Shown here: positions 1 through 17,986 of the stretch, piece by piece
Layout of the letters: every line of letters starts with the position of its first letter
Numbering within the stretch: the stretch's first letter is position 1
Source: Cytophaga sp.
Lineage (GTDB): Bacteria; Bacteroidota; Bacteroidia; Cytophagales; Cytophagaceae
Direction: 5' to 3'
Length of the DNA stretch: 18,241 bases
Assembly: GCA_043729555.1 (NCBI GenBank)
Contig: JAYTLG010000280.1
Span: forward strand, 1 to 18,241
The notes under the pieces: model-generated
Told to the model about the DNA's origin: nothing
The model's database searches: none
The model's input: the letters and a program-made list of their open reading frames with translations, nothing else
Translations under genes and position numbers: made by a program

Positions 1-56
1 ACCTCATTTACACACCTAAGCTTAAACTCATAATCATACTTGACTTTCCGTAACAT

Positions 57-95
57 AAAACTGCCCCCAAATAGTGTCTAACTTTTTGGGGGCAG
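57..95 (-). terminator. Rho-independent terminator downstream of the hipT-like gene
   Basis: Perfect 11-bp GC-rich stem ctgcccccaaa (61-71) pairs with tttgggggcag (85-95), loop 72-84. Read on the minus strand the hairpin is followed by TTTTATGTT (plus-strand aaaa at 57-60). It lies 58 bp past the TGA stop at 153-155. Confidence 0.5.
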
Positions 96-152
96 TACAA
101 AATTCAGCGGGATTTTTTTATAACCATTCATTTATCGTAGCGACACTACTCA

Positions 153-1136
153 TCAATCTTTCGTCAATTGTTTTAAACGGCCTTGATACGACTGCCAATA
201 ATTTCTTTTCAGGGTATCATTGAGAAAAGAAACAGCTACCATTTTTTCTACGCTATCGGACTGTGATAACATTACAGACATCATGTCCTTAAACATCTTT
301 TCACTGACTCCTATATGCTCTGCAAGTAGTGAAAATTGTTTACTCGTTTTCCCTTGCGCTAAATTTTTAGGCAATAGTCCGTCTTCCAATGCAAAATCTT
401 TATCATCTATGTGCATTCGACTATTCAGCAAGTCATATGCGGGACTTAGTCTGTAATCTCCCATAGGAGTTTCGAGCAAAGAAAAGTTTTTTAAATGTGC
501 ATCTCCATTTGAAAATAAATAATTAAAGACAAGTATTTTTAACAGCTTCGGTGCTTCTAATTTATAAGCAGGTAAATGCGTTTGCATTAATTGAAACAAC
601 GCTAAATAATTTCCTGCATACTTATAATGTTCACCATGAGTTTGTGGTGTTCTTCCAGCCAAAGATGCAAAATCATCTTGCGCTCGTTTTGTACCATCTT
701 CATTTACATCAAAGCGCTTGGTTATGTAAGCAGGTGTTCCATCTTTAAAAAAGATCAATGCATTTTCAGCCGTTTCTATTCCATATACCTGACGTGCAAT
801 TTGCATCGTGAGGTGTTCGTTAGCTGGCATTTGATCTGCATTTTTACCAGCATCGGGAATTGGTTTCAAAATATACGTTCCGCGTTCACCTTCCTTTATA
901 AGCCTTAACTTATTCTTAACTAATAATACAGAAAACTTTTCCTGTACTCCTGAAATAGACATGCGATTTCTGTTTTCTTCAAAAAGTTCATCGGTTTCAG
1001 GATTGGATGCTGGTGAATCGTAAGGCAATACATGATACACCTTCTTACTCTGAAACACCCTGTTCAAGCAGGTTCTACTGTAGGTGTCAAAACCTGCTGC
1101 TAAGGTGCCGGGGCAATATTTTATTTCAGGTATCAT
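153..1136 (-). CDS. hipT: HipA-family Ser/Thr protein kinase toxin (C-terminal kinase module only, HipT-like), 327 aa
   Basis: Gly-rich loop MSISGVQEKFS: an S-x-S arrangement as in HipT, rather than the single-Ser loop of HipA. Catalytic motif FSNGDAHLKNFSLL and Mg-binding LSPAYDLLNS are present. The HipA N-subdomain is absent here and encoded by the separate upstream ORF. Stop codon is TGA. Confidence 0.8.
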   Translation of the reverse strand: MIPEIKYCPGTLAAGFDTYSRTCLNRVFQSKKVYHVLPYDSPASNPETDELFEENRNRMSISGVQEKFSVLLVKNKLRLIKEGERGTYILKPIPDAGKNADQMPANEHLTMQIARQVYGIETAENALIFFKDGTPAYITKRFDVNEDGTKRAQDDFASLAGRTPQTHGEHYKYAGNYLALFQLMQTHLPAYKLEAPKLLKILVFNYLFSNGDAHLKNFSLLETPMGDYRLSPAYDLLNSRMHIDDKDFALEDGLLPKNLAQGKTSKQFSLLAEHIGVSEKMFKDMMSVMLSQSDSVEKMVAVSFLNDTLKRNYWQSYQGRLKQLTKD

Positions 1137-1161
1137 TTTTTGTTTTTATAGTCACATGAAT

Positions 1162-1482
1162 TTATAGTTTGACAACGCTAACAGCACCGATGCTGTCATT
1201 TTTTGCGGTTGTCATAAGCAATCCAAAATAATCGTCTTGGTCAATTCTATTGTGTTTACATACCACTTGTTTATTCGATCCTTCAGGTAGCATGTTGTAA
1301 AAAAAAGGGAACAAAAATGTTGAATGAAATTCTTGATCGATTTTAGGCAAAGTAAGACTAACACCTGGCTTGTTGCTATCTGTCATCCAAGCATCGTGGT
1401 AACGAAACGTAAACGAACCATCATCGTGTTGAGTTAACACGCCTGCTTCTTCGTCCTTGTATAGTATTATTGCTTTTCTCAT
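1162..1482 (-). CDS. hipS: HipS-like protein (stand-alone HipA N-terminal domain), 106 aa
   Basis: Matches the HipA N-terminal (couple_hipA) pattern: MRKAIILYKDEEAGVLT...FTFRYHDAWM...SLTLPKID...FFYNMLPEG. Start at 1482..1480 overlaps the upstream hipB-like TGA at 1481..1479 (ATGA overlap). It ends 25 bp upstream of the kinase gene. Confidence 0.75.
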   Translation of the reverse strand: MRKAIILYKDEEAGVLTQHDDGSFTFRYHDAWMTDSNKPGVSLTLPKIDQEFHSTFLFPFFYNMLPEGSNKQVVCKHNRIDQDDYFGLLMTTAKNDSIGAVSVVKL

Positions 1483-1697
1483 GTGTTACGAGGCACCTTT
1501 TTAAGTTGTAAGCAAAGCTCCATGCCCAATACATCGGCTAATTTTTGTAGGGTCAATAAAGTCGGATTTCCTTTGCCACTTTCAAACTGTTTTAAAGTTC
1601 TTAAGCCAACACCCGATAGTTCTGCCAAGGTTTCTTGCGTTACCTGCAATACTTCTCTTCGCTCTTTTATACTTTTCACTAACTCAGTAAAGTGCAT
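1479..1697 (-). CDS. hipB: XRE-family helix-turn-helix transcriptional regulator (HipB-like), 72 aa
   Basis: Classic XRE HTH: LKSIKERREVLQVTQETLAELSGVGLRTLKQFESGKGNPTLLTLQKLADVLGMEL. First gene of the three-gene operon and translationally coupled to the HipS-like ORF. Confidence 0.8.
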   Translation of the reverse strand: MHFTELVKSIKERREVLQVTQETLAELSGVGLRTLKQFESGKGNPTLLTLQKLADVLGMELCLQLKKVPRNT

Positions 1698-1830
1698 TAT
1701 ATGGCTCTTTTTTATACAAAAATAGAAGTTATCTTATTAAACACAACACAAAGTGCTTTAAACGGCACTATTTGAAGAATTTTAATACTACTTAGAGATT
1801 ATTGCATTGAATAGTGCTATATAAAGCACT
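1691..1830. promoter_or_regulatory. Three operator-like AGTGC-N8-GCACT inverted repeats at 61-bp centre-to-centre spacing
   Basis: Site 1: 1752-1769, agtgc tttaaacg gcact. Site 2: 1813-1830, agtgc tatataaa gcact, embedded in a perfect 15-bp-arm palindrome at 1804-1839 (gcattgaatagtgct / agcactattcaatgc). Site 3: 1691-1708, agtgc attatatg gctct (4 of 5 in the right half), overlapping the hipB-like ATG at 1697..1695. Centres are near 1699.5, 1760.5 and 1821.5. Confidence 0.55.
1717..1724 (-). promoter_or_regulatory. Candidate Bacteroidetes -7 promoter element (TATTTTTG on the minus strand) for the hipBST-like operon
   Basis: Plus-strand caaaaata is the reverse complement of TAnnTTTG, 20 bp upstream of the hipB-like ATG. 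A possible -33 TTTG (plus-strand caaa at 1749-1752) lies about 24 nt further upstream and overlaps operator site 1. Confidence 0.35.
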
Positions 1831-1865
1831 ATTCAATGCGCATTTTCAAAGGGAAAAAGTAAATG

Positions 1866-1915
1866 ATGTCTATATTTCTAAAGTAAAAAGTTGTTTTTAT
1901 GTCTATATTTCTAAA
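1866..1915. repeat. 17-bp direct repeat atgtctatatttctaaa, two copies
   Basis: Copies at 1866-1882 and 1899-1915 (33-bp period) in the AT-rich spacer between the hipB-like and transglutaminase-like genes. Confidence 0.6.
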
Positions 1916-2008
1916 ATCTCATTAGGCGGACAACGGTCGGCGCATCTTGTTTAGAAGACCATCTAAATGTAGTTACGTTCATATTTTTCATTGAAAACAA
2001 CTTAGCCC

Positions 2009-2164
2009 CTACCTACCATTGTTCTTATTACTCAACGCACGCGTTTTCTTGTCACTCTTTTTTTGTTGTTTAAAATAAGCGCTCAATGCCTCTTCTTCAG
2101 CCTTTGTTATAGCACCTTGTCCTCCAATAAAATCAATATCAAATTTTTGTTTTTTAGTTTTCAT
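2009..2164 (-). CDS. Possible small hypothetical protein, 51 aa (MKTKKQKFDIDFIGGQGAITKAEEEALSAYFKQQKKSDKKTRALSNKNNGR)
   Basis: Hand-translated from the minus strand: ATG at 2164..2162, TAG at 2011..2009. It falls below the cutoff of the supplied ORF track. No recognisable domain; could be spurious. Confidence 0.2.
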   Translation of the reverse strand: MKTKKQKFDIDFIGGQGAITKAEEEALSAYFKQQKKSDKKTRALSNKNNGR

Positions 2165-2309
2165 CGTTAATGACATCTAAAGTTCCACATAAAGCAAATG
2201 ATCATATCTCGTCGCTGGCAAAAACTTACAGCTTATATATCTTATTTTTGAGCCTATCGCTAAGAGTTCCTAATTTATGATACTATCAAAACTACATCCA
2301 TTATCACTC

Positions 2310-2317
2310 TAGTTTTG
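2310..2317 (+). promoter_or_regulatory. Candidate -7 promoter element tagttttg (TAnnTTTG) for the transglutaminase-like gene
   Basis: Motif match about 48 bp upstream of the ATG at 2365. A second match, tatttttg, sits at 2349-2356. Confidence 0.25.
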
Positions 2318-2364
2318 GTACATTTACACCCTCTTTAATTTCTTATTTTATTTTTGACGCATTC

Positions 2365-4224
2365 ATGAAACACCTTATTTTATTTTTTCTACTGTTCATT
2401 GCATTGTCAAGTAATGCTCAAATCCCTAATCCTTTTCATCGAAGCGTAGAAAGTCTGGCAAATAAATTTAAGAAACAATATCCTGACGACAGTACAAGAA
2501 CCGTAGCGATATACGATTGGATTAAGAGCTATATGCGCTATGATTTAAGAGCCTTCGAGAAATATAAATTTAAAGTAAATAGTTATTCATTAAGTAAAAT
2601 CTTGTACAGAAGAAAAGCACTGTGCTTTGGCCTCTCCAAGCTGTTTCAAGACCTATGCCTTCGGTCAGGCATTAAATGCGTACAACTTCAAGGCTATGCA
2701 TTTGAAGATCCAAATGATCCTTACATACATTATTACTACGACAACCACGCATGGAACACCGCTAGTATCAACGGGCACTGGTATTTGTTTGATGTAACCT
2801 ATGACAACGGTTTCATTAAAAAGAAAAAAAGAGTTATTCGAAAGTTTTTAAACAAGACCTTCTCTATTCCTCTATTGTATGAAAAAACAAAATATATTCA
2901 CCAACCAGCAAACCGGTTTTCATTTAAGTCAGGAGCGCAATTTATTCATTCTCATTATCCTGTCTTAATTAATGGGGTGTTGATCAACGATAAGGTGAGT
3001 ATAGCGTCATTTGCAAAAAATGAGGTAAGCGTTTCAGGAGACTATAATCCTTCTTCTTATCCGAACATGGCTCAACTGTATGACTTTGCTGGTTCCAACG
3101 AGTCTATACAATTAAAAATAGCGGCAGACCAATCGGCACTCTTCAATCCAAAAAACAATTTAATAAAGACGGTTAATTACCATAATTCACTATTTCACTT
3201 CAACAAAATAAAAAGCAATTTTAACAAATCAGATGTAGATACGGTCATAAAGTATGCGGCATTATTCAAACGAGACAATACCGCTCTTCATTCAAAAAAC
3301 AGTAAACGAGTAAGCGACGAACATAAAAGTTTATTGGCCTCATTAAACAAAGCCTTAAGCCACAATGAACGACTTGCCATTCAGTACAACAAAAAAGGAA
3401 TTCGGGGCATTACTAAACTAGCCAAAACAGCAGAAGCCAATGCAATAAAATCGAATAAGATTGAAGAACGCCAGTTAAAATTAGAAGAGCATCTGGCCGG
3501 ATCTAGAAAGAAAAACGACACCATTCCTTTTCCTACACATTTAGTACAGCACAAAAAAACAGTAGCAACAGGAGACAGTCTATTGTTTACCTTGAACAAA
3601 GCCAATGGTGTATTGGATAGTTTAAGCATGCGATCTGAAGAATTGTTTAATTCGACTTATCACTTATTAAAAGAAAGAGTAATGTTATTGAATGCACACA
3701 GAGCAGGCGACATGAACCTTAAAACGTATCCAAAGCTGAGTGTCGTCGCGTCTGATATTGATTCCGTAACAAGTTTAATTGATCGCTATAAAACGCAAAT
3801 AGATAAAACAGAATATGAATACAATAAAGTGAGACAACAAGCGATACGAAATGCAACGAGTGGCTTTACATTGACCAGTAAGGAATATATAAAAACACAA
3901 ACAGGTATTTCTGTGCCTCTGCCCTATTCAAAAGACACGTTGGTGGCTGAGTTATTTGTGCGCACGAATGCTTTCAAAGAAGCATTGGTAGTATTTTACC
4001 ATCATGACGAAGAAATAGCAAATACGCAAACCTCGCACTACCTCTCCGCTGCAAAGTTTTTAAAAGGAGAAAAGAAACTTATTCAAAAAACAATTGTAAT
4101 GAGACAAATGGCTTATAGCTGCAGAATCAATCACGAGAACCGTCGTTACAAAGCCTATGACAACTATGTCTTCAGTATTGCCAATAGCATGAGGATGTTG
4201 AAAATGAGTTATAAGAGAAAATAG
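2365..4224 (+). CDS. Secreted transglutaminase-like (papain-fold Cys protease-like) domain protein with long K/N-rich C-terminal region, 619 aa
   Basis: N-terminal signal peptide MKHLILFFLLFIALSSNAQ. Transglutaminase-core triad context: KALCFGLSKLFQDLCLRSGIKCVQLQGY (Cys), DNHAWNTA (His), GHWYLFDVTYDNG (Asp). About 450 aa of low-complexity Lys/Asn-rich sequence follow. Stop codon is TAG. Confidence 0.7.
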   Translation: MKHLILFFLLFIALSSNAQIPNPFHRSVESLANKFKKQYPDDSTRTVAIYDWIKSYMRYDLRAFEKYKFKVNSYSLSKILYRRKALCFGLSKLFQDLCLRSGIKCVQLQGYAFEDPNDPYIHYYYDNHAWNTASINGHWYLFDVTYDNGFIKKKKRVIRKFLNKTFSIPLLYEKTKYIHQPANRFSFKSGAQFIHSHYPVLINGVLINDKVSIASFAKNEVSVSGDYNPSSYPNMAQLYDFAGSNESIQLKIAADQSALFNPKNNLIKTVNYHNSLFHFNKIKSNFNKSDVDTVIKYAALFKRDNTALHSKNSKRVSDEHKSLLASLNKALSHNERLAIQYNKKGIRGITKLAKTAEANAIKSNKIEERQLKLEEHLAGSRKKNDTIPFPTHLVQHKKTVATGDSLLFTLNKANGVLDSLSMRSEELFNSTYHLLKERVMLLNAHRAGDMNLKTYPKLSVVASDIDSVTSLIDRYKTQIDKTEYEYNKVRQQAIRNATSGFTLTSKEYIKTQTGISVPLPYSKDTLVAELFVRTNAFKEALVVFYHHDEEIANTQTSHYLSAAKFLKGEKKLIQKTIVMRQMAYSCRINHENRRYKAYDNYVFSIANSMRMLKMSYKRK

Positions 4225-4300
4225 TTGAAGTGAAAAATACTTACGCAATACTACTAACATTTCCTTCTTGAAGCATTATTCATGCTTTCTTTATTCCTTC

Positions 4301-4345
4301 CGCAGAGCCTCATTCACGAAGGCTCTGCGACAAAGAAATTTTTTT
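4301..4345. terminator. Hairpin terminator between the convergent transglutaminase-like and flotillin genes
   Basis: Stem cgcagagcc (4301-4309) pairs with ggctctgcg (4321-4329), 11-nt loop, followed on the plus strand by acaaagaaattttttt. Confidence 0.5.
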
Positions 4346-4366
4346 ACTATAAAAATCACATTGGCA

Positions 4367-6271
4367 TTACTTCTTGCCCTCACTTTTCTTAGGATCCATC
4401 ATCTCCATTAACTTCAACCCTAATAAGCCATCCATCGCAGTTCCATTACTGTTGGTACCTCCAATTAAAACATCAGGTATTAATTTAATGTGTCCTTTCG
4501 CAAGCTCCTCCGTGATTTTATACCTCGTAAAGTTTTCACCTCCTAGGGCACTTACAGCAAGTTCGTATGCTTCCGCTGTAGATTTACCGATTGCAAGTAT
4601 TTTGCCTGCTTCAGCACTACCCGTTAACGATATTTGTTCTGCTTGCGCAGATGCTTTTAATTTAATCGCTTCAGATTCTGCTTGAGCCCTTGCTTTCGTA
4701 GCTTCTGCTTCTGCAAACGCACGTAATTTCGTGGCTTCCGCCTCTGCACCTACGGCTAGCTTCACTCCTGTAGCATCACCTTCCGCTTTCTTTACGGTTG
4801 CATTTGCAGTTCGCTCCGCTATCTCTACACTTTGTTGAGCTTTCACAATATCCTTTTGCATATCTGCAATGGCCGTTTCCTTCTCCATTCCTTGGCGGGT
4901 TTCTTGCGCTTTTTTCTGCGTGTCGTAGGTTACTTTTTGTTCTTCTGCAATTTTACGATCTGTCAACGTTTTCATCAACGATTCTGGAGGTACGATGTCG
5001 CCTATCAAAGTATCAACGGCATTCACATTGTATTCATCCAAAACTTTTTTGATGTGCTCCTTCGCTGATTCTTGTCTTTCTTTTCTCGTACTTAGGAATG
5101 CAATCACATCACTGTCTTGCGCAGAGTTACGAAAATAATTTCCGATGGTAGGTTCCAATACTTGCGACACTAAGTTTACCATATTCCCAAATCGCGCAAT
5201 CACTTTCGGAGCCTCAGTGGTAGGAACATGTATGATTTGAGCAACGTCTAAGTTGAAAGGGAAACCATCTTTTGAACGTACCGTAATGGTTGAAAGATTC
5301 TTATCAAGGTTGTGCGCTTCACTGCGAGCAGAAGCCCAATTGAGTACAAGGTTAGTGGTTGGCACGAGTTCAACTTTCATAATGTATTTATTGACAGGAT
5401 ACTTACCAGGTCCTAAAGGCTGCAGCCAAACCCCTTTGAATCCTTTTTCAACGATGTTGCCATGTTTGAAATCAATACCTGTAAGGTCACTTCCTTCTTG
5501 GCCTATGTATGAAATTACAACACCAACATAACCGATAGAAATTTCCGTCATTGGAATTTCTTCAATTTGTACCGCCCAATAATTTAAGTTGTATGAACCA
5601 GCAAGAATTACCTGAGGCTGCAGTCCACGATTACCTCCATTAGCGATGAATTTATCGAAATCTTGAAAATTGTTATGGTCTTCTACTAATTTACCTGCGA
5701 TCTGCCCAGCTTCAATAGGCATACCATCTAAGGTAGTTACTATGCCTACCATGCTTTCTTGAATACGAATCATGTCCGTTACAGAAACTTGAAACAACAT
5801 GGTGTTGATTCTGTAAGAACCCGCTGTGATGTATGTTGCTTGTCTTCCTCTTTGTCCTCCACCTAATAAAAATTTTGTTGCATCTTGAAAGTTGTCACAT
5901 TCCACTCGCAGTCCTAGAATGTTTCCTGTTGGAATTTCACTTCCGTCTTTCGCCATAATTAAACCGATTTTACCTTCTGGAATAATGGTAAAACTTTCCA
6001 TGGTGACATCAAATTGCCATACCCATTTCCAGAAATACAATCCTGGAGCCAGTGTTCTAGATTGAAAACCCGCTTCACCATTGGTTGCGATAATACGTCC
6101 ATCTTGCAATTCTTTATTTGCTCCAAACAAAACAAACTGTTTCGTAACCAGTCCAACTTTATCTTCTGGAACAATAACAACACCGAAGAAAAAACGAAGT
6201 ATGTATTTATATAAAATAATACCGATGATTACGATTGCGATCCAACCGTAACTTAAAAGCACATGTCCCAT
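4367..6271 (-). CDS. Flotillin-family (SPFH/band-7, YqiK-like) membrane protein, 634 aa
   Basis: N-terminal TM segment WIAIVIIGIILYKYIL, SPFH-type core, and a C-terminal Ala/Glu-rich repeat region (AEAEATKLRAFAEAEATKARAQAESEAIKLKASAQAEQ) typical of bacterial flotillins. Stop codon is TAA. Confidence 0.8.
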   Translation of the reverse strand: MGHVLLSYGWIAIVIIGIILYKYILRFFFGVVIVPEDKVGLVTKQFVLFGANKELQDGRIIATNGEAGFQSRTLAPGLYFWKWVWQFDVTMESFTIIPEGKIGLIMAKDGSEIPTGNILGLRVECDNFQDATKFLLGGGQRGRQATYITAGSYRINTMLFQVSVTDMIRIQESMVGIVTTLDGMPIEAGQIAGKLVEDHNNFQDFDKFIANGGNRGLQPQVILAGSYNLNYWAVQIEEIPMTEISIGYVGVVISYIGQEGSDLTGIDFKHGNIVEKGFKGVWLQPLGPGKYPVNKYIMKVELVPTTNLVLNWASARSEAHNLDKNLSTITVRSKDGFPFNLDVAQIIHVPTTEAPKVIARFGNMVNLVSQVLEPTIGNYFRNSAQDSDVIAFLSTRKERQESAKEHIKKVLDEYNVNAVDTLIGDIVPPESLMKTLTDRKIAEEQKVTYDTQKKAQETRQGMEKETAIADMQKDIVKAQQSVEIAERTANATVKKAEGDATGVKLAVGAEAEATKLRAFAEAEATKARAQAESEAIKLKASAQAEQISLTGSAEAGKILAIGKSTAEAYELAVSALGGENFTRYKITEELAKGHIKLIPDVLIGGTNSNGTAMDGLLGLKLMEMMDPKKSEGKK

Positions 6272-6319
6272 GATTCTTTAGATTAAATTGTTTAGTAATG
6301 TTTAGGTTTGTTTTTTTTT

Positions 6320-6327
6320 CAAATGTA
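6320..6327 (-). promoter_or_regulatory. Candidate -7 promoter element (TACATTTG on the minus strand) for the flotillin gene
   Basis: Plus-strand caaatgta, 49 bp upstream of the flotillin ATG at 6271. Confidence 0.25.
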
Positions 6328-6424
6328 AGTAAATAGTTTTTAATAGTTCGCTGTCAAAAATTTATCTCTTTTAGCCAACTGACGACGCCTTATAAATAGC
6401 AACATCGAACACTGGCGTTAAAGA

Positions 6425-6982
6425 TTAATCCTTCGTTGTACTGATTAAGTCTTGCAAAATACCTTGTCCTTCTTCCCAAAACTCCAAGTTGGAATCGGAG
6501 TTTATGTGTCCTTTTAAACCAATGTTTATAAAAGCGCTGCCCCATTGTTTGGCAAAATAGTGGGCACGATCGAAACTCAGATAAGTATCATTCTCGCTTG
6601 CAACTACAATGGAAGGAAACAAAAGCCTTGTCAATGGCATAGGTGCAAAACCTCTCACCTCATCTGGCGTATGCGCAGGAGAATCGACATCGGCAGGGGC
6701 TACCAGCAACGCTCCTTTTACATTCGTATTCTTATAACGTTGTGTCCAATGAAGCACTAAGGAAACGGCAAGACTATGCGCCACTAAAATTACAGGGCCG
6801 TCTAGTTTTAAGAGGGTATCATTTAATTTTTTCAACCACGATTCAAGTTGTGGTTCATCCCATTCGTCTTGAACAAGCTTTACAGCATTGTCAAATTTCT
6901 TTAACCAAAAGGACTGCCAATGGCGCTCTCCCGAATCACCAAGTCCTGGAACAATTAATAATGTTATTCCCGTTTTATTCAT
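6425..6982 (-). CDS. Alpha/beta serine hydrolase, RBBP9/YdeN family, 185 aa
   Basis: Size and motifs fit PF06821-type serine hydrolases: LLIVPGLGDSGERHW, nucleophile elbow VAHSLA, C-terminal GHIN. Stop codon is TAA. Confidence 0.65.
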   Translation of the reverse strand: MNKTGITLLIVPGLGDSGERHWQSFWLKKFDNAVKLVQDEWDEPQLESWLKKLNDTLLKLDGPVILVAHSLAVSLVLHWTQRYKNTNVKGALLVAPADVDSPAHTPDEVRGFAPMPLTRLLFPSIVVASENDTYLSFDRAHYFAKQWGSAFINIGLKGHINSDSNLEFWEEGQGILQDLISTTKD

Positions 6983-7013
6983 TGTTCAAGAATATTTTTC
7001 GCTGACGTGTTGC

Positions 7014-7232
7014 TTAAACTTCAAATAGCACATTGCCTGGTGCCTGTCTGGTAATGTCTTTCAAGTCGGCGGCCGATTTAATGCCAGCATTCCTTATGAC
7101 AAGCTTTGCCCCAGATGCCTTGGCTTGACGCGCCATGTCCTTCAGGTCTGCGGTAGATTTAATGGTTGCATCGATACTGATTCCGCCACCCAGTCTAATA
7201 ATTTCTTTTAAGTCAGTTGTTGATCTGCTCAT
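7014..7232 (-). CDS. Small hypothetical protein with three degenerate internal repeats, 72 aa
   Basis: Repeats STTDLKEIIRLGGGISIDATIK, STADLKDMARQAKASGAKLVIRNAGIK and SAADLKDITRQAPGNVLFEV share the motif S-(T/A)-x-DLK-(D/E)-(I/M)-x-R. The fold was not recognised. Starts 32 bp downstream of the hydrolase gene. Confidence 0.55.
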   Translation of the reverse strand: MSRSTTDLKEIIRLGGGISIDATIKSTADLKDMARQAKASGAKLVIRNAGIKSAADLKDITRQAPGNVLFEV

Positions 7233-7378
7233 GTTAAACGTGTTTTTTTGAAAAATTTCTGTCCACTATAAAAATAATAAAAGTATTAGAAATTACTACA
7301 CAAAAACTACGCAAGCGTAAGGTACTTTCTATCGCTGGCGAAAGTTTAGAGATAGAATTATGCTCCATTTAAACAAGG

Positions 7379-7759
7379 CTATTTCTGATTTTTCAATTTC
7401 TTTTCAACTAACGCACGAATTAAGTCGGCACATCCAATGCCGATAATTGAAGCCATAAAGTCTAAAGGGTCAAATGTTCGAGGCGTAAACAATTGAATAA
7501 TTTCTGTTAAGGATAAAACAGCAAATGTCACAAAAGCAGCTATTAATTTTGATTTGAATTTAAGGTACAATGAAAGGTAAATACTAACCCCTGCAAAGAA
7601 ACTAGGAAGTATACCAAGCATAAATGAATTAACATTAAAATATACAAAAACCCTTCTTAGTATGAAGACAATAAAAAGCCAAAGATATGCCGAACTCATT
7701 GCAATGTTAATTATCCATCGGGCAGATTTATTTTCTCTGTTTATGTGAAAAAAATTCAT
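7379..7759 (-). CDS. VanZ-like family membrane protein, 126 aa
   Basis: Four predicted TM segments. C-terminal VanZ signature LTEIIQLFTPRTFDPLDFMASIIGIGCA (E-x2-Q-x4-R-x2-D-x2-D-x6-G-x-G). Only 10 bp downstream of the big sensor gene's stop, so probably co-transcribed. Stop codon is TAG. Confidence 0.6.
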   Translation of the reverse strand: MNFFHINRENKSARWIINIAMSSAYLWLFIVFILRRVFVYFNVNSFMLGILPSFFAGVSIYLSLYLKFKSKLIAAFVTFAVLSLTEIIQLFTPRTFDPLDFMASIIGIGCADLIRALVEKKLKNQK

Positions 7760-7769
7760 TTTGACAAAT

Positions 7770-10700
7770 TTAATATTCCAATGGCATACTTGTTCTTTTT
7801 ATTAACTCCACTATTTTAGTGTACAATTGGTTTTCATTAATGGGTTTGGAAATATAATCATCCATTCCAAATTCTTTACATTTGGCAACATCAACGGTGG
7901 TAACATCTGCCGTTAATGCAATGATTGGAATATTAGATTTCATTGTATTTCGAATGTATTCCGTTGCTTCATACCCATTCATTTCAGGCATCTGCAAATC
8001 CATCAAAATAATATCGTAGGTATTGGCTTGCAACTTTTCTATTGCAACTTTACCATTACCTACTACTTCATGTTCAAATCCAAAATCGCTTAGCAGAATT
8101 TTTATTAGTAATTGATTTAATGAAATATCTTCCGCTACTAATACGCGTAGGGTTTTGATTTTCGGATCCAATTTAAGCGTTTCTATTTCATCTATTGTTT
8201 CCCTATTCGTTTTCCCAAAGGGAAGGATAAAACTAAATGCGGAGCCTTCTCCCTTCTTACTCGTCACACTAACACTCCCACCTTGAATTTCTACTAATTG
8301 TTTTACAATTGATAGCCCCAATCCAGTTCCACCATAAGAATTTGATGTACTGATTTCTGCTTGTTCAAAAAGATTGAATACTGAACTTATTTTGTCATCC
8401 GAAATTCCAATTCCAGAATCGGTAACGGTAAATTTCAGCAGTATCTTTTCTGCCTCTTCGCTCTGTATCTTAACGCTTAGTGTAATTCCACCTTTATGAG
8501 TAAACTTTATTGCATTACCCATCAGATTTAATACAATCTGATTTAATCTTACTGAATCACCTATTAATACGGATGGAATTTCGTTGTCGTATTCACTGCT
8601 AAATTTTAAATTCTTTTCTTTTATTTTCAGGTCAAACGAATGGACTACTGACTTTATTGATTTTTGTATTTCGAAAGGCTGTTTCTCGAATGTCATTTTA
8701 CCCGCATCTACTTTTGCCAAATCAAGTATATCATTAATGAGCAGCGTTAAAGAATGGCCACTTGTTTTTACAGCCTGAACATACTCCTTTTGTTTTTCAC
8801 TCAACTCGGTTTTCATCAACACATTTGCAAATCCTAAAATAGAATTCAATGGTGTTCGAATTTCGTGACTCATGTTTGATAAAAACTGTTGCTTAAATTT
8901 CGTAGCATTTTCTGCTATTATTTTTGCTTCGATTAATTCTTTTTCAAACAACTTTTGTTCATGAATATCAAAACCAACACCTATAAAGCCAATAAATTCT
9001 CCATTGGGCAAATAACGAGGATTCGCCTGAACCGCAAACCACCTGTATTCCCCATCGTAGCGCTTAATGCGAATGCCGGTTAAGGAATAAGGCTTGCGAG
9101 CTTCAAAAGCAGGTATATACACATCCATAATGGGTTGCACATCGTCTGGATGTATAACGTCATCCCATGTTCTGCCAAGTGCTTCTTCCAATGTTTGCCC
9201 CGTGTAATCTAACCAGTATTTGTTCCAATAACTGATTTTCGCATCTGCAGTTGGTTCTATTATAAATACGTTCAGTGGAATATTGTCAGCCATCAAACGG
9301 AAGCGTTCTTCGCTTTCTCTTAATTGCAAATTGTATTCAGCTTGCGTGGTTACTTCAGTGGCAATGATGCCCACACCTATTATTTGTCCTTCTGTATTGT
9401 GTTGCGGTTGCAAAATGAAATTATAATACTTCAGTGCTATTTTCCCATGCTGTAAAATATGAACTGGAGATTCAACTGCAACAAATGGTTTTCCTGTTGT
9501 GTATACCGCATCAAAAATTTCTTTGTATCCTTGTACGCCTAATTCAGGAAGCAATTCAAAATATGATTTTCCAATGACATCATTACCTTTGCCCCAGATC
9601 TCTATAATGGCATTGTTTGCAGTGGTAATAACCATGTCCTTGCCTTGTAAAATACCAATAGCCGAAGTAGAAGTGGAAATCATGTTGTGGTAACGAAATT
9701 CACTTTCTTCAATTTTTTTATGGGCAATCAACTGTTCGGTAATGTCTTCAATAGCAAGCAGAATTAATTTTTCGTTGCCGGCTTCATTAAGGACTTCGCG
9801 GCCATTAAGTACTACAGTACGTTCGCCAATGTTGGGGAAATTGTGTGCTACTTCAAAATTTTCAAACTTTACCTTATGTAACAGAATGTTTTGTAACTGT
9901 TTCCGTAATGCCGGAATATCCCATTGTTTATTGCCGAGTTCAAATAATAATTTCCCCTCGGTATCTTTTTCATTGACATGGAAAGTTTTATAAAAAGAAG
10001 CATTGGCCGATTTTATCCGAAGGTGCTTATCAAGTACCAACAGAGGTTCGTGCAAGGACGATATAATGGCTTCTGCATAATCTCTTGCTTCTGTAACCTG
10101 TTCATTAAGCCCAATCATTTCCTGGTTTACAACGCTCAGTTCTTCATTGGTACTTTGCAATTCTTCTTTGCTGGTTTCCATTTCCTCATTCAGGCTCTGC
10201 AATTCTTCGCTACCACTCAGCAGTTCTTCATTCGCACTTTGCAATTCTTCGTTGGCTGCTTCCTGCTCTTCGGTAATGCTACGCATGTCCTCACGGCTTT
10301 GCGCCAGTTCTTTTTCTAATTGCTGTATGCGTAAATCTTTGGCGGCACTGGATGATTTAGAAGCAGCGGATGTTTTTTTAATGCTTGTTGGTATTTGCTG
10401 GTTGGCATTTAATAACTGATTGTGAAAAAGCACCAGGTAATGTGGCTCAATAATATTCGGCAATGGTATAGCTTCAATTGAAATAGTGTGTTGCACATCA
10501 TTTATTTGTACCGGAATATTTTCTTTTATAACAGTTGCATTTTCTTTTTTTGCTTTGTGCAAAATATTGCGCAGTTCAAATGCCAATCCTTCTTTAGCCA
10601 TCTTCAATAAATTAAGGCTGGCTTTCCCTGGTGATGGTTCTAAAAAATTGCCGGTCCTACCTCTGAAGTGTACAATATCCATGACCTCATTTACCACCAC

Positions 10701-12353
10701 ACCAGCAGGAGTGTATTTGCTCAGCATAATATCATCGGCGGTTTTTTGAAAATCGGTACGAATGATTTCACTTTTACTGTGCACGTTTTTATCGGCAAAG
10801 CTTTTTTCACTGAGCAAGCTTGCGGTAGGCACAAACCTGCCTGGGATATCTTTACAGGTAAATATCTTATCGGTTTTCGCAGTGCCCTTCAATTGGCATA
10901 TTGCAAAATGATCTGGCACTCCACTGGTTGTTTCTGATTTACCCAGCAATAAAAGTCCTTTTGAATTTAATGCGTAATGAAAAGTGGTGAGTGCTTTTTT
11001 TTGCAAATAAGGCTCCATATAAATAAGCACATTGCGGCAGCTTATTAAATCCATTTTACTAAAGGCAGGATCTTTTAAAAAATTATGGACTGCAAACACA
11101 CATAAATCGCGGATGGTTTTTTTTGCTTGGTAGTCCCCATTATTCTTAGTGAAATATTTTGTCAGGTGCTCTTCGCTTAATCCCTTTACATCGCTGATTG
11201 AATAAACTCCACTGCGGGCCTTTGCAATGGCAGGTTCACTGATGTCAGTAGCAAAAATTTGCACTCTTTGATTTCCGTCAGGGGAAAAAAGATCGTCCAA
11301 CAATTCCTTAAAACAGATTGCTATTGAATATACTTCTTCGCCTGTACTGCAACCAGCCACCCAAACACGAATGGGCTCGCCTTCTATTTTATTTTTTACA
11401 ATAAGAGGAAATACAGATTTGCATAAGGTGTCAAAAATTTTCGGATCTCTAAAAAAATCAGTCACAGGAATCAGTAAATCTTGATACAATAAATCTTGTT
11501 CTGTTTTTTTCTCTCTTAAATATTTTAAATAGGCCGAAGGTTCTTCTGTTTTATTAATGGCCATCCTGCGGAGTATTCTTCTGCGGATGGTAGATTGTTT
11601 ATAATACGTAAAATCTGTACCCTTGCGAATGCGGAGCAGTGAAAGAATGTGTTTAAACACCTCTTCCGCTTGTTGTGGAATATCCTCACCATCTTTACCT
11701 CGAATAATGTTTATTACTTCCAAAAGTTTTTGTGGTATTTTATCGGGCGATAAAATAAAGTCAACTACCCCCGCTTCAACGGCGCTATGCGGCATGCCTT
11801 CATAGGCTGCCGATTCCTCGTCTTGCGCAAAAGTGATGCCTCCATTATCTTTAATCGCCTTCAAACCCATGGTGCCATCACTAGCCGTGCCAGACAATAC
11901 CACACCAATAGCATGGCTTTGATGTACTTCGGCAAGCGATGTAAAAAAAAGATCAATGGGGAGGTTACGTTCCATTTTGCTTTTTGCTGGGCGTTGACTA
12001 AGTTCCAGCACACCATCATTAGCAATCATCATTTTATTGCTGGGGAGGATATAAATATGGTTGGGCTGAACTTTAATATCATCCGCAATTTCGAGTACTG
12101 GAATCTTGGTAACTTTTTGCAGCAATTCTACAAGAAGACTTTCGTGGTTGGGATCAAGGTGCTGTACCAACACATAAGCCATACCGGAGTCTTCGGGGAT
12201 TGCTTTTAATAATTTTTTAAAAGCATCGAGCCCGCCAGCAGATGCACCAATGCCCACCACAGGAAAAATGTTAGTGGACTTGATGAGTTCCTTATTTATT
12301 TCTGGTATTGAATTTTTGGATTTCATCTCGAGTGCATTAAGGCAGCGGCTCAA
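7770..12353 (-). CDS. CheB methylesterase - CheR methyltransferase - coiled-coil - PAS x3 - HisKA - HATPase_c - receiver hybrid sensor protein, 1527 aa
   Basis: Residue numbers are approximate, counted by eye. CheB triad context GIGASAGG, VQHLDPNH and LSGTASDG (about aa 30-210). CheR N-terminal and SAM-binding domains with VWVAGCSTGEE (about aa 225-475). Seven perfect heptads of x-N-E-E-L-Q-S (about aa 695-746). Three PAS domains (about aa 755-1130). H-box NMSHEIRTPLN (His about 1163). HATPase G-boxes DSGIGI and GGTGLGLSIV. Receiver with DIILMDLQMPEMNG (Asp about 1452). Stop codon is TAA. The alternative start MKSKNS (codon 10) cannot be excluded. Confidence 0.85.
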   Translation of the reverse strand: MSRCLNALEMKSKNSIPEINKELIKSTNIFPVVGIGASAGGLDAFKKLLKAIPEDSGMAYVLVQHLDPNHESLLVELLQKVTKIPVLEIADDIKVQPNHIYILPSNKMMIANDGVLELSQRPAKSKMERNLPIDLFFTSLAEVHQSHAIGVVLSGTASDGTMGLKAIKDNGGITFAQDEESAAYEGMPHSAVEAGVVDFILSPDKIPQKLLEVINIIRGKDGEDIPQQAEEVFKHILSLLRIRKGTDFTYYKQSTIRRRILRRMAINKTEEPSAYLKYLREKKTEQDLLYQDLLIPVTDFFRDPKIFDTLCKSVFPLIVKNKIEGEPIRVWVAGCSTGEEVYSIAICFKELLDDLFSPDGNQRVQIFATDISEPAIAKARSGVYSISDVKGLSEEHLTKYFTKNNGDYQAKKTIRDLCVFAVHNFLKDPAFSKMDLISCRNVLIYMEPYLQKKALTTFHYALNSKGLLLLGKSETTSGVPDHFAICQLKGTAKTDKIFTCKDIPGRFVPTASLLSEKSFADKNVHSKSEIIRTDFQKTADDIMLSKYTPAGVVVNEVMDIVHFRGRTGNFLEPSPGKASLNLLKMAKEGLAFELRNILHKAKKENATVIKENIPVQINDVQHTISIEAIPLPNIIEPHYLVLFHNQLLNANQQIPTSIKKTSAASKSSSAAKDLRIQQLEKELAQSREDMRSITEEQEAANEELQSANEELLSGSEELQSLNEEMETSKEELQSTNEELSVVNQEMIGLNEQVTEARDYAEAIISSLHEPLLVLDKHLRIKSANASFYKTFHVNEKDTEGKLLFELGNKQWDIPALRKQLQNILLHKVKFENFEVAHNFPNIGERTVVLNGREVLNEAGNEKLILLAIEDITEQLIAHKKIEESEFRYHNMISTSTSAIGILQGKDMVITTANNAIIEIWGKGNDVIGKSYFELLPELGVQGYKEIFDAVYTTGKPFVAVESPVHILQHGKIALKYYNFILQPQHNTEGQIIGVGIIATEVTTQAEYNLQLRESEERFRLMADNIPLNVFIIEPTADAKISYWNKYWLDYTGQTLEEALGRTWDDVIHPDDVQPIMDVYIPAFEARKPYSLTGIRIKRYDGEYRWFAVQANPRYLPNGEFIGFIGVGFDIHEQKLFEKELIEAKIIAENATKFKQQFLSNMSHEIRTPLNSILGFANVLMKTELSEKQKEYVQAVKTSGHSLTLLINDILDLAKVDAGKMTFEKQPFEIQKSIKSVVHSFDLKIKEKNLKFSSEYDNEIPSVLIGDSVRLNQIVLNLMGNAIKFTHKGGITLSVKIQSEEAEKILLKFTVTDSGIGISDDKISSVFNLFEQAEISTSNSYGGTGLGLSIVKQLVEIQGGSVSVTSKKGEGSAFSFILPFGKTNRETIDEIETLKLDPKIKTLRVLVAEDISLNQLLIKILLSDFGFEHEVVGNGKVAIEKLQANTYDIILMDLQMPEMNGYEATEYIRNTMKSNIPIIALTADVTTVDVAKCKEFGMDDYISKPINENQLYTKIVELIKRTSMPLEY
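10116..10271 (-). repeat. 21-bp tandem nucleotide repeats encoding the NEELQS heptad coiled-coil linker of the CheB/CheR hybrid
   Basis: Repeated ctttgcaattcttc-type units are visible on the plus strand. The reverse-strand ORF 10147..10419 with repeated LCNSSL is the mirror image of this. Confidence 0.7.
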
Positions 12354-12610
12354 TGTACACTATTAATCTATCTGTTTGGGATTTCATATGCAGTAAGACT
12401 TCGCCTTTACCCTTTTATCTGCTTAAAGTGATAAAGAAACAGCTTACGTTTAAAATGGCTAGAGAGGTGTTCTATAGTAAAGAAATAAAAAGCGCTGGCG
12501 GAAGCTTAAAAGTCAGTCCAACACGAGCGTTAAAGAATGTACTCAACGAGCTTGGGCTAACAAATCCAATGTCGAAACAAGTTTTAATTTTAGCTGGCGA
12601 AAGCTGATAG

Positions 12611-13303
12611 CTAATGATCGTGTTTCTGCAAGCTAACTTTTGTCCTAAACCCTCCACCATCAACAAAATCCTTAAACTTTTTATTCGACAGATGGAGTGC
12701 CGGAGCAAATATTGGTTTCCATACATCGCTAGAATCTATAAATTTATTCCTATCCTGTTCGTTGGTGATATTTATAGAATAAGAATTTGCACTCACATGC
12801 TCAAATTGAAAAATCTCCCAGTTATTTTTATCGATAAAATGATTTAAATAATATTTTCCATTCGACTGAATTAATTTGTCTTTCTTATGCAAGTTCATGA
12901 TGGTGTCTTGAGTGCTTTCTTTGAATATGAGATAACCATCTTGTATAATTTTTATTTCATTTTTATGCCTTTCAACGACCTGTGCTGTATCGAATTTAGA
13001 CAGTTGATAATACGTTGAAAATTCTAGTGAGTAAAATGCTAGCTGATCCGTAATGGTTAACATTCCCGAAAAGATCATGACCGAATCTTGTAGCATGATA
13101 AAATCCTTTGAGTAGTATTTTGAATTATAAAATATTTCTTTATTTCTTGACCCGATTGTGCTGTCAGCACTATAATACATCCCTACTAATTCAGCGGTAA
13201 AGTGCTGTAGCTTTATGCCATCCTTGGGCATAGGCCTGTCAAAGTTTATACCCGAACAGCTTGCCAACAAAATGCAACATAATATCAAATGTATTTTTTT
13301 CAT
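12611..13303 (-). CDS. Lipoprotein, function unknown, 230 aa
   Basis: Signal peptide with lipobox MKKIHLILCCILLASCSG (Cys after L-A-S). Stop codon is TAG. It is 257 bp upstream of, and co-directional with, the CheB/CheR hybrid gene. Confidence 0.65.
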   Translation of the reverse strand: MKKIHLILCCILLASCSGINFDRPMPKDGIKLQHFTAELVGMYYSADSTIGSRNKEIFYNSKYYSKDFIMLQDSVMIFSGMLTITDQLAFYSLEFSTYYQLSKFDTAQVVERHKNEIKIIQDGYLIFKESTQDTIMNLHKKDKLIQSNGKYYLNHFIDKNNWEIFQFEHVSANSYSINITNEQDRNKFIDSSDVWKPIFAPALHLSNKKFKDFVDGGGFRTKVSLQKHDH

Positions 13304-13460
13304 CTTACTATACTCTTGCAGGCGAAAGCTTTTAGCTTGTGCCTTTTATTTTTAGAGCGTATCGCTCGGTGTTTATTGTGTTATAGTATGTTCGAGCTAT
13401 AAGCTCTATATCCCGAAGTCTCGGGATAGACAAAAGATACTCTTGCGCCAACAGATCTGA

Positions 13461-13664
13461 CGCGGATGTTACGAAGGATCATCCGTGACATACACTAAAA
13501 CTAATATTAACAATATCGACTTTAGGGATCTGCGATCCCTACCTCAATTTAAATATAAAAATAAAACACCATTATCAATGTATGGATTGCAAATCCATAT
13601 GCACATTGCTACACTTTATTACTTTGTGGTAAATGGCACGGATGATCCTGCGGAACATCCGCGC
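13461..13664. repeat. Mirror-symmetric array of four GGAT/ATCC-cored palindromic sites bounded by a 27-bp inverted repeat
   Basis: IR-L cgcggatgttacgaaggatcatccgtg (13461-13487) versus IR-R cacggatgatcctgcggaacatccgcg (13638-13664): 25 of 27 match when reverse-complemented. Internal perfect 19-bp palindromes tagggatc-tgc-gatcccta (13523-13541) and tatggatt-gca-aatccata (13581-13599). Site centres at 13474, 13532, 13590 and 13651 (spacings 58, 58, 61 bp), symmetric about roughly 13562. Confidence 0.6.
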
Positions 13665-13688
13665 CATTTGTGTAATTATTTATTATTT

Positions 13689-14870
13689 CTAATTTCCATT
13701 TTCAAACATTGGCAACTCAATCGTAAATATTGTTCCTTTGTCTTTACCTTCACTATTTACTTTTACGTTTCCTCCGTGCCTTTCTGCAATTTCTTTGGCA
13801 ATCCATAAACCAAGTCCCGTAGACACTTCATTGCCTGTCGGTTTAGCACTTAACTTACTAAACTGCTTAAAAGCATTATTCATATCCTCAATCGTCATTC
13901 CTTGCCCATTATCTTTTACTTCTAAAATTACTTTTTCTCCTTTTTTCTCTAAAAGGACAGTAATGTCTTTGCCGCTTGGCGAATACTTAATAGCATTACT
14001 TAAAAAATTATCTATCAATTCTGACAACCTTGTTTTATCTCCATGAACAAGTATATTCGTCTCTACTGAACTTTCTATTTTCTGCTGTTTTTTTGATGCT
14101 ATTACCTTATTAGTTGATATTACTCTGTTAGTAAGCTCGGAAAGATCAAAAGACTCAAATCTATAAGGAATATCTTTTGACGAATTTACAGCATGCCTTA
14201 AAAAACTATCTACTGCCTGTATGCTTTTATCTGCGAAAGATTTTATCATATCCCCCATTTCTTCTACCTCATCAGGATTTCCTTTTTGCTCTTTTATTAA
14301 ATCTACTAAATAAGGGATGTTGCAAACTGCACTACGGACATCGTGAGTTATCATATAAGCCATTTTATTTTGTGAATTTATTGCCGAACGAGCCATTAGA
14401 CGCAATTCTAACTGCTCAATCACAACATAGGCTAAATCTTCTAATATCTGTTGTTCCGTATTATTTAGGGTTCTTGGCTTTTTGTCAAGAACGCAAAGCG
14501 TCCCCAAGTTGAAACCGTCAGAGGTTGTTAAAGGAACTGCTGCATAAAATCTTAATCCAAATTCACTTGTTACTAATGAATTTCTAAGTGTTCTGGGGTC
14601 TTTTAAAGCATTTTCTACCATTTAAAAATCCTTAGAAAAAATAGCTGATGCACATAGCCCTTCTTCTCTTGGTATTTGCTGAACATTCAAGCCAAATGCT
14701 GACTTAAACCAAATTCTATCAGTATCTACTAAAGAAACAATAGCAATTGGTACGTTTAATAACTTTGCTACTAATTTTACTATACGGTCGTATGTTCCAT
14801 CTGGTGGAGTATCCAAGATCTCAAACTTCCTTAGTGTTTCTAATCTTTTTATCTCTGTTTCTGTTGTCAT
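13689..14870 (-). pseudogene. GAF-sensor histidine kinase interrupted by one in-frame TAA (ORFs 14622..14870 and 13689..14621 share a frame)
   Basis: The 82-aa upstream ORF is the N-terminal half of a GAF domain (LETLRKFEILDTPPDGTYDRIVKLVAKLLNVPIAIVSLVDTDRIWFKS). The 310-aa ORF continues it (ENALKDPR...GLRFYAAVPL) into a HisKA-like H-box (ITHDVRSAV) and HATPase_c (DNGQGM, GLGLWIAKEIA). TAA at 14624..14622 is followed directly by ATG 14621..14619 (TAAATG). Confidence 0.7.
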
Positions 14871-14888
14871 TGTTTTTTTTAATTAAGG

Positions 14889-15000
14889 CTAACGGATAGC
14901 GTGTTGTAGACGGTGCAGGAGTTAAAGCTCTTCACTGCACGCTAGTACCGAGGGGAGCCATGGGCTTATCTTTGCGTAGCCAAGCCCATGGCGATTAATG
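14889..15000 (+). repeat. Copy 1 of a ~115-bp repeat family (5' box ctaacggatagcg, 3' hairpin gccatgggctt...aagcccatggc, tail gcgatta)
   Basis: Aligns with the copies at 17023 and 17987. Hairpin 14957-14992 has an 11-bp stem. Sits 19 bp upstream of the GAF-kinase ATG at 14870, directly adjacent to the left inverted repeat of the transposase unit. Confidence 0.7.
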
Positions 15001-15010
15001 GCTCCCCACT

Positions 15011-15729: not shown

Positions 15730-15767
15730 AGAAAGGGCTATTTCAATGTCGTTCATCAGCCCTTGTG

Positions 15768-16964: not shown

Positions 16965-17022
16965 TGGACTTATTTAGTCGTTAGATTGAATTGTTATGTT
17001 ATTGCGTCTACCGCCATTGCAC

Positions 17023-17176
17023 CTAACGGATAGCGTGTTGTGGTCGTTGCAGGTGTTAAAGCTCATCACTTCACTTTAGTAACGAAGTAAGCCATGGGCT
17101 TATCTTTGCGTAGCCAAGCCCATGGCGATTATTGGCTCTGCTGTTTACTCTAGCAGAATACCTGCACTGACAACAA
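17023..17176 (+). repeat. Copy 2 of the repeat family, with extended tail cctgcactgacaacaa
   Basis: 5' box at 17023; hairpin 17091-17126, identical in sequence to the copy-1 hairpin. It fills the spacer between the 52-aa ORF stop (17194) and the PAS-kinase ATG (16964). Confidence 0.7.
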
Positions 17177-17193
17177 TGTTAGGCACAGTGCTT

Positions 17194-17926: not shown

Positions 17927-17986
17927 CTGATTTTAAGCAAATTTAGTCAAAAAATACGATAAATGCTCTGTCGGCTAACATTGCCC

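Follow-up and report, generated by a model that had tools for sequence, protein, structure and literature searches.

The HipBST toxin-antitoxin (TA) system was defined in E. coli O127, where HipT is toxic, phosphorylates TrpS and autophosphorylates at Ser57 or Ser59, and HipS is the antitoxin (PMC6581861). The roles of HipS as antitoxin and HipT as toxin are supported both in E. coli (PMC6581861, PMC10627512) and in Legionella pneumophila (PMC9325769, PMC10653801). In the E. coli protein, HipS Trp65 is essential to inhibition (PMC10627512); in Legionella, HipS binding turns the phosphate-binding loop (P-loop) of HipT from a loop into a helix and so blocks ATP binding (PMC9325769), and HipT toxicity is not rescued by TrpS or GltX (PMC10653801). 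HipBST has so far been studied in only these two gammaproteobacteria, which differ in target, phosphoregulation and operators. Here we describe a HipBST locus in an 18,241-nt stretch of DNA from Cytophaga sp. (GenBank assembly GCA_043729555.1, contig JAYTLG010000280.1, positions 1 to 18,241 of the forward strand), which is referred to below as the window. Its sequence and that of its relatives indicate that it is probably a functional type II tripartite HipBST TA module, belonging to an L. pneumophila-like subclade.

The locus consists of three genes, given here in the order in which they occur in the operon:

1479-1697, minus strand: hipB, a 72-aa Xre/Cro-type helix-turn-helix (HTH) protein with matches to HTH_3 and to HipB of L. 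pneumophila, HipB(Lp); first gene of the operon and presumed autorepressor.

1162-1482, minus strand: hipS, a stand-alone HipA N-subdomain-1 of 106 aa, whose start overlaps the hipB stop codon (ATGA); presumed antitoxin.

153-1136, minus strand: hipT, a 327-aa HipA-like Ser/Thr kinase core (HipA_C) lacking N-subdomain-1; presumed toxin.

The original prediction, made from the sequence alone, had described the same three minus-strand genes as an HTH regulator, a HipA N-terminal domain and a kinase, and the open reading frames (ORFs) together with the Pfam and NCBIfam matches confirm this. The ATGA overlap between hipB and hipS (1479-1482) and the 25-nt spacer between hipS and hipT (1137-1161) that it reported can be read directly from the window sequence. 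The order hipB-hipS-hipT, on one strand and with tight spacing, is the gene arrangement of the HipBST family. The names in use at NCBI are 'HipA N-terminal domain-containing protein' and 'type II TA system HipA family toxin'.

Profile searches agree with these assignments. The 327-aa ORF matches HipA_C in Pfam (E 3.9e-40), the only domain found in it; the 106-aa ORF matches Couple_hipA in Pfam (4e-20) and TIGR03071 couple_hipA in NCBIfam (5e-27); and the 72-aa ORF matches HTH_3 in Pfam (8e-13), the match spanning residues 10-61. Comparison with all PDB sequences aligned HipT with L. pneumophila HipT (7vkb_A, 8ezr_B; E 2e-30, 31% identity) over residues 5-324, with E. coli O127 HipT (7ab3_C; 5e-10, 26% identity) over residues 55-238 only, and with HipA (1.8e-8) over HipA residues 141-363, the bit scores being 109 (full length), 42 (partial) and 37 respectively. 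HipS matches HipS(Lp) (7vkb_B; 1.8e-11, 34% identity), H. influenzae HI_0666 (3.4e-10), E. coli O127 HipS (7ab3_B; 4.5e-10) and HipA residues 3-104 (4e-6), and HipB matches the 76-aa chain of HipB(Lp) (8ezt_A; 3.2e-4). Each protein thus finds its counterpart among the chains of the solved HipBST complexes, and the proposal of a HipB-HipS-HipT operon with a split kinase holds. Judged by the sequence scores and the short HipB, the L. pneumophila system is the nearest characterised relative. The E. coli O127 system, which the original prediction had taken as its model, shares the double-serine loop but is more distant, as seen from the HipT scores of 109 against 42 bits.

The functional motifs of the two kinase parts were located by alignment to the solved proteins:

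936-959, minus strand: Gly-rich (P-) loop of HipT, S60-I-S62-G-V-Q-E-K, preceded by M59 and ending at K67.

423-509, minus strand: catalytic N210-G-D212-A-H-L-K216-N217 and Mg-binding P232-A-Y-D235-L-L-N of HipT, from alignment to HipT(Lp) and HipT(Ec), the E. coli protein.

1276-1287, minus strand: P66-E67-G68-S69 motif of HipS, from alignment to 7ab3_B and 7vkb_B.

The loop has the sequence that was originally predicted, running from S60 to K67, and its two serines align with Ser57 and Ser59 of E. coli HipT and with Ser54 and Gln56 of L. pneumophila HipT. D212 aligns with the catalytic D197 of HipT(Lp) and lies in a motif that matches 'NNDMHLRNF' of HipT(Ec), and the D235 motif aligns with 'PVYDFV' of the latter. 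For the close relatives we used one-genome-per-species GTDB contigs, and the loci studied are the best 80 of at least 483 genomes. An S-[ILV]-S loop is present in 83/83 loci, and across 34 relatives S60, S62, G63, V64, Q65, E66 and K67 are invariant, as are the catalytic D212, K216 and N217 and the Mg-binding D235, all of which are intact in the window. The loop is also found in 63 of 74 full-length representatives clustered at 50% identity. The double-serine loop, put forward originally as a hallmark of HipT autophosphorylation in the O127 system, does not set the locus apart: S-psi-S loops form the largest group among 48 HipT orthologues (PMC10627512), and together with the representatives this makes them the majority state of HipT.

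In HipS, Glu67 occupies the position of E. coli HipS Glu63, and Ser69 that of the inhibitory Trp65, which is Ile in Legionella. The PEG motif is invariant in the HipS alignment, the sequence PEG[S/T/A/P]NKQ occurring in all 82 relatives from which hipS was recovered, none of which has a Trp at the position equivalent to Trp65. The domains of HipB, HipS and HipT and their loop and catalytic residues are all those that define the HipBST family (Gerdes clade III / Vang Nielsen 2019). The single polypeptide of canonical HipBA is not seen, given that a stop codon and the 25-nt spacer part HipS from HipT, and the two are split in all relatives.

Two ORFs that together are colinear with HipA could also represent a decaying hipA, in which a frameshift or interruption makes one pseudogene look like two genes, and the fact that the 25-nt spacer of the window is absent from most relatives might be taken in the same sense. 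However, hipB-hipS-hipT order is kept in 77/77 loci with enough upstream DNA, the other three being cut by contig ends. The overlap between hipB and hipS is 4 nt in 69 loci, and that between hipS and hipT is 4 nt (ATGA) in 46 and 1 nt in 19. The split of HipS and HipT is therefore ancestral, and its boundaries are those of the solved split systems. The ratio of nonsynonymous to synonymous substitution rates (dN/dS), calculated for relatives against the window, is 0.085 for hipB, 0.081 for hipS and 0.078 for hipT, with a median dN of 0.12-0.14 and a dS of about 1.5 (often saturated) for all three genes. Values of about 0.08 in all three, and hence in both halves of the supposed hipA, imply strong purifying selection on long-maintained functional genes. 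Finally, contigs L002 (99.5% DNA identity) and L003 (100%) encode Hip proteins that are all identical to those of the window, and since the hipS-hipT junction has the same sequence on three independent metagenome contigs, it is not an assembly error. On this comparative evidence (conserved split, overlaps and dN/dS) we rejected pseudogenisation, which we consider to have practically no chance of being correct.

The junction has some local peculiarities. HipS is 2-3 codons short in the window (106 aa, compared to 108-109 aa in relatives), and the A-rich 25-nt spacer at 1137-1161 stands in place of the usual ATGA or 1-nt overlap. In four relatives (L012, 3558-3950; L056, approximately 3590-3995; L075, 1384-1774; L077, 3612-3995) a gene for a four-helix bundle of about 115 aa lies between hipS and hipT. 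It matches Pfam 23S_rRNA_IVP (E 1.3e-28), and the four copies are 75-86% identical in DNA. The hipS-hipT spacer is also widened in L023 (3796-3995), L029 (3736-3846) and L056 (3351-3460), where it carries short tandem repeats (GCTGTTAGGCTGTAG, GAATTAAGAATTAG and runs of CAATGGG/CAATGGA).

Proteins of this kind are common. At least 8000 database proteins match HipT at E<=1e-10, and more than 120 clusters are 80-87% identical to it. Those that have a name, from Flavobacterium, Lutibacter, Spirosoma, Saprospiraceae, Bacteroidales and others, go under 'HipA domain-containing protein' or 'type II toxin-antitoxin system HipA family toxin'. In a library of representatives at 50% identity, 4121 proteins match at E<=1e-3, of which 173 reach E<=1e-30; the top full-length matches measure 310-345 aa, the size of HipT. 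Some HipT relatives at 45-52% identity, namely P0244 (543 aa), P0246 (442 aa), P0257 (415 aa) and P0259 (424 aa), have 90-210 extra residues beyond the kinase core, and are possible fusions, for instance to a HipS-like domain or to some other one. A close HipT relative is present in at least 483 species-representative Bacteroidota genomes, and the best 80 (76-84% identity) come from Flavobacteriales, Bacteroidales, Cytophagales, Sphingobacteriales, Chitinophagales and Saprospiraceae; HipB identity is 70-87% across 77 relatives. The top named HipT match is a Flavobacterium protein at 87%, which hints at exchange within the phylum. L002 also encodes an aspartate-semialdehyde dehydrogenase, with 89-93% identity to proteins of Cytophagaceae and Chitinophagaceae metagenome-assembled genomes and 80-82% to Pedobacter, and this confirms that the host is an uncultured member of the Bacteroidota.

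HipBST(Lp) homologs have been reported as 'widely distributed' in the Fibrobacteres-Chlorobi-Bacteroidetes (FCB) superphylum, and supplementary file 6 of Lin et al. 2023 lists Flavobacterium, Bacteroides, Parabacteroides, Pedobacter, Prevotella, Capnocytophaga and others as 'HipBST LP' (PMC10653801). It had been suggested that a minimal HipB in a Bacteroidetes host would make the locus an uncharacterised variant. That suggestion does not stand, given that the 76-aa HipB(Lp) has been solved (8ezt) and that Bacteroidota HipBST(Lp) systems were listed in 2023 (PMC10653801). The cassette is a member of a known and already catalogued subclade, and as such is a fairly ordinary annotation. In the literature searched, we found no paper that reports an experimental test of any Bacteroidota HipBST.

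If the cassette works as its relatives do, then HipS, and not HipB, would bind beside the Gly-rich loop of HipT and lock it in a conformation unable to bind ATP, and Ser60 and Ser62 would be autophosphorylation sites that tune both activity and sensitivity to HipS. HipB probably joins the HipS-HipT complex too. The roles could in principle be distributed differently, in a split but HipBA-like manner: HipS and HipT would reassemble into an active HipA-like kinase, with HipS as a required subunit or neutral lid and HipB as the real antitoxin. This would fit with the report that the Legionella HipS-HipT complex takes on nearly the HipA conformation (PMC10653801), with the lack here of the Trp65 that makes E. 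coli HipS inhibitory, and with the best NCBIfam match of HipB, which is the HipB-type antitoxin family couple_hipB/Y4mF (1.6e-13, below the family cutoff). In both HipBST systems tested, however, including the Trp-less one of Legionella, HipS neutralises HipT and HipB alone does not (PMC6581861, PMC9325769). Moreover, the 72-aa HipB is scarcely more than its HTH (residues 10-61), with no long extension, and HipS keeps an invariant PEG motif, which faces the active site. We therefore regard HipB as antitoxin as very unlikely, and retain HipS in this role.

The region upstream of hipB contains a repeated palindrome, AGWGC-N8-GCAC, in three copies that are 61 bp apart from centre to centre. The elements are as follows:

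1692-1708, minus strand: proximal operator-like palindrome, AGAGC-N8-GCAC, of which the right half-site is the hipB start, ATG-CAC.

1717-1724, minus strand: TATTTTTG, a match to TAnnTTTG, 20-27 nt upstream of the hipB ATG.

1752-1769, minus strand: middle operator-like palindrome, AGTGC-N8-GCACT, directly upstream of what is presumed to be the -33 element.

1813-1830, minus strand: distal operator-like palindrome, AGTGC-N8-GCACT, forming the core of a longer palindrome of 18+18 nt (1804-1839).

In the whole window the motif is observed 3 times, where 0.12 would be expected, and all three copies are within 1692-1830. The upstream regions of 75 relatives were anchored on the hipB ATG and searched for G[AT]GC-N8-GC[AT]C. 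Almost all matches (159/160) fall at three positions, namely -133 to -130 (50 loci), -72 to -70 (53 loci) and -10 (56 loci), and ATGCAC is present at the hipB start in 73/75 loci. The upstream conservation profile of 74 relatives peaks on the three palindromes and on TAtaTTTG at -27 to -20, which is the most conserved upstream block, at about 2 bits per position. The proximal palindrome has the consensus AgaGC..TAtAATGCAC, reaching up to 2.0 bits per position. The TAtaTTTG block fits TAnnTTTG, the -7 element of Bacteroidetes promoters. In Legionella, three operators at even intervals are bound by HipB (PMC10653801). By analogy, HipB dimers are predicted to bind the three palindromes here and to repress a promoter with its start site within the proximal one, about 12 nt upstream of the ATG; with one palindrome by the presumed -33 element and another over the transcription start and the hipB start codon, the operon would repress itself.

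A scan flags 1769-1752 as terminator-like, and the palindromes at 1752-1769 and 1804-1839 could be read as terminators for the 55-aa ORF that lies upstream. We rejected this reading, since they keep a constant spacing to the hipB ATG across 75 loci with unrelated genes upstream. Two exact 17-nt direct repeats (ATGTCTATATTTCTAAA) are found at 1866-1882 and 1899-1915, 33 bp apart and a short way upstream of the distal palindrome.

A strong terminator had been predicted at the 3' end of the operon, and a hairpin followed by UUUU is indeed found at 60-96 (folding of the surrounding 81 nt, 45-125, gives -28.2 kcal/mol, z-score -4.2). This hairpin belongs to an inserted insertion sequence (IS) and is not the operon's own. 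Contigs L002 and L003 match the window only down to position 100, and then complete another and much stronger hairpin, AAAAAAATCCCGCTGAA-TTTC-AGCGGGATTTTTTT (-35.4 kcal/mol, z-score -10.4). This is the native terminator of the operon; in L002 it has hipT on one side and a convergent GH20 gene on the other. This end of the window holds the following two features:

100-129, minus strand: left half of the native terminator (GAATGGTTATAAAAAAATCCCGCTGAATTT), cut in the loop; the complementary arm, ...CAGCGGGATTTTTTTATAAC, is present in L002 and L003.

1-99, minus strand: left end of an IS3-family element, with its terminal inverted repeat, an internal complement (hairpin 60-96) and the start of OrfA; not part of hipBST.

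Window positions 1-99, together with a further 41 nt in L001 (11137-11177), contain the inverted repeat ACTGCCCCCAAAAAGTTAGAC, a near-complement of it, and an ORF that begins 4 nt after the hairpin with MLRKVKYDYEFKLRCVNEVLKK. The first 18 codons of this OrfA are in the window (ATG at 56-54), and the contig ends inside the IS. The 32-aa N-terminus of OrfA from L001 matches HTH_Tnp_1 over 30 residues (E 0.005). An exact search of the metagenome contigs with the 43-nt IS end gave no match. A degenerate back-translated pattern located a complete related element in L084 (approximately 4150-5600), in which the same hairpin directly precedes OrfA (HTH_Tnp_1, 3e-11). Its OrfB carries an integrase domain (rve, 1e-25), and its right inverted repeat also matches. 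An IS3-family element has thus interrupted the native hipBST terminator within its loop. The hairpin in the left end of the IS may still stop read-through from hipT.

The machine just described might have been selected not for plasmid-type addiction or persistence but for anti-phage abortive infection, in which a phage frees HipT from HipS or HipB and translation is shut off. A dN/dS of about 0.08 and an amino acid identity of about 80% across Bacteroidota classes would be unusual in a purely selfish module. There are matches in PADLOC to the candidate pair PDC-M03A/B (1e-8, 3.9e-5); Fic-like, AAA-ATPase or type I restriction genes lie near hipBST in a few relatives; and phage defence has been validated for DS-6/HipAD, another kinase system of the HipA family (PMC13092281). 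On the other hand, the PADLOC matches are weak and to untested candidates, the others being to generic HTH models, and there is no consistent defence-island context, the flanks being unrelated among the 80 loci. Clustering of the flanking ORFs of these loci gave no recurrent partner (the largest cluster is a generic PAS/His-kinase family, in 8 loci), and hipBST is a self-contained cassette in unrelated neighbourhoods. The literature searched contains no report of a HipBST that protects against phage. A defence role is therefore possible, though we think it doubtful.

Several points weigh against the assignment of the locus as a functional, L. pneumophila-like HipBST module. The functional roles are assigned by homology at only 26-34% identity. 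AlphaFold2 models were too poor for a comparison of folds (predicted local distance difference test scores of 41.5 for HipT and 54.8 for HipS), the alignments being shallow, with all members at least 76% identical. The wedge residue Trp65 of E. coli HipS is Ser69 here, so that the Trp of O127-type HipS is lacking, and of the residues of L. pneumophila HipT reported as critical for HipS binding, several are not conserved (Arg134 is replaced by Val and Arg154 by Glu), so that the interface may differ. Binding of HipB to the palindromes is predicted by phylogenetic footprinting alone, and the palindromes differ from those of L. pneumophila: AGWGC-N8-GCAC (6+8+6), with 61-bp spacing and the proximal copy over the start codon, compared to TTACTG-N6-CAGTAA for O1, with 53-bp gaps and O1 located 24 nt upstream, a comparison that rests on O1 as taken from an oligonucleotide table. 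Lastly, expression could be altered both by the disrupted native terminator and by the uncoupling of hipS and hipT by 25 nt.

Some of these differences could be read in another way, with the Bacteroidota cassette as a third and functionally distinct HipBST subtype, having a dual-serine loop, a Trp-less HipS and an operator code of its own, and with its conservation possibly reflecting a host-beneficial role such as phage defence and a target other than TrpS. We consider this improbable. The cassette is among the most widespread and best-conserved versions of HipBST. It could reveal the way in which a HipS without the Trp inhibits a HipT with two loop serines, the substrate of HipT, and the reason why the module is kept, and the conserved three-operator promoter provides a testable regulatory map in a phylum with unusual promoters.

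The rest of the window contains several other features. Upstream of hipBST is a lysine-rich 55-aa ORF (2009-2176, minus strand), also present on L002, with no significant Pfam match. A 1527-aa ORF at 7770-12353 (minus strand) is called a CheB/CheR-PAS-HisKA hybrid sensor on the source contig, and there are further His-kinase genes at 13689-14621 and 15768-16964. At 15139-15618 (minus strand) is a fragment of an IS200-like Y1 transposase (98 aa; Y1_Tnp, 1.7e-8), which apparently continues in a 54-aa ORF and is flanked by 58-nt inverted repeats (15009-15066 and 15674-15731) that are 88% complementary. Dispersed repeats of 116 nt occur at 14889-15004, 17023-17138 and 17987-18102, with 73-89% identity and the palindrome GCCATGGGCTTATCTTTGCGTAGCCAAGCCCATGGC, and have the look of repetitive extragenic palindromes or miniature inverted-repeat transposable elements. 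A 194-aa P-loop kinase resembling Zeta toxin/AAA_33 (17342-17926, minus strand; Zeta_toxin, 1.4e-11) is followed by an overlapping 55-aa ORF (17194-17361, minus strand), and the two may form a second TA-like pair. A tRNA scan found no tRNA or tmRNA gene in the window, and there is therefore no obvious integration hotspot.

Of the known systems, canonical HipBA of E. coli K-12 has the same kinase fold family and an HTH partner gene in first position, and HipS and HipT are colinear with HipA residues 3-104 and 141-363. Its operators are palindromic with an 8-nt spacer (TATCC-N8-GGATA), as are the palindromes in the window. It differs in that HipA is a single 440-aa polypeptide with a single autophosphorylation site, Ser150, which inactivates the kinase, and in that HipB is the antitoxin and there are four operators.

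The HipBST system of E. coli O127:H6 (PDB 7ab3-7ab5) resembles the locus more closely in architecture, being tripartite, and shares with it the S-I-S loop (Ser57/Ser59, compared to Ser60/Ser62), the conserved Glu of the HipS PEG motif, and the Asp residues for catalysis and Mg binding. It is, however, much more distant in sequence, with a partial HipT match at E 5e-10 and 26% identity. Its HipT targets TrpS, and its HipB has an extra N-terminal segment; the Legionella authors found its similarity to HipB(Lp) undetectable.

The L. pneumophila system (Lpg2368-2370; PDB 7vkb, 8ezr, 8ezs, 8ezt) has the same gene order, a similarly short HipB (76 aa, compared to 72 aa), no Trp at the Trp65 position of HipS (Ile there, Ser here), a HipT that is alignable over its full length, with catalytic D197 and K201 corresponding to D212 and K216, and three evenly spaced palindromic operators upstream of hipB, which in the window are predicted. 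It differs in its loop, which is S-V-Q compared to S-I-S here, giving the window HipT a second potential phosphosite as in E. coli. It also differs in the junction of its ORFs, which overlap by 4 bp where hipS and hipT are spaced by 25 nt in the window, and in its promoter, that of the window being of Bacteroidetes type. Judged by these alignments, the cassette therefore mixes both models, with an E. coli-like dual-serine loop and a Legionella-like Trp-less HipS and short HipB, and this would make it a useful third reference point beside the two systems studied so far.

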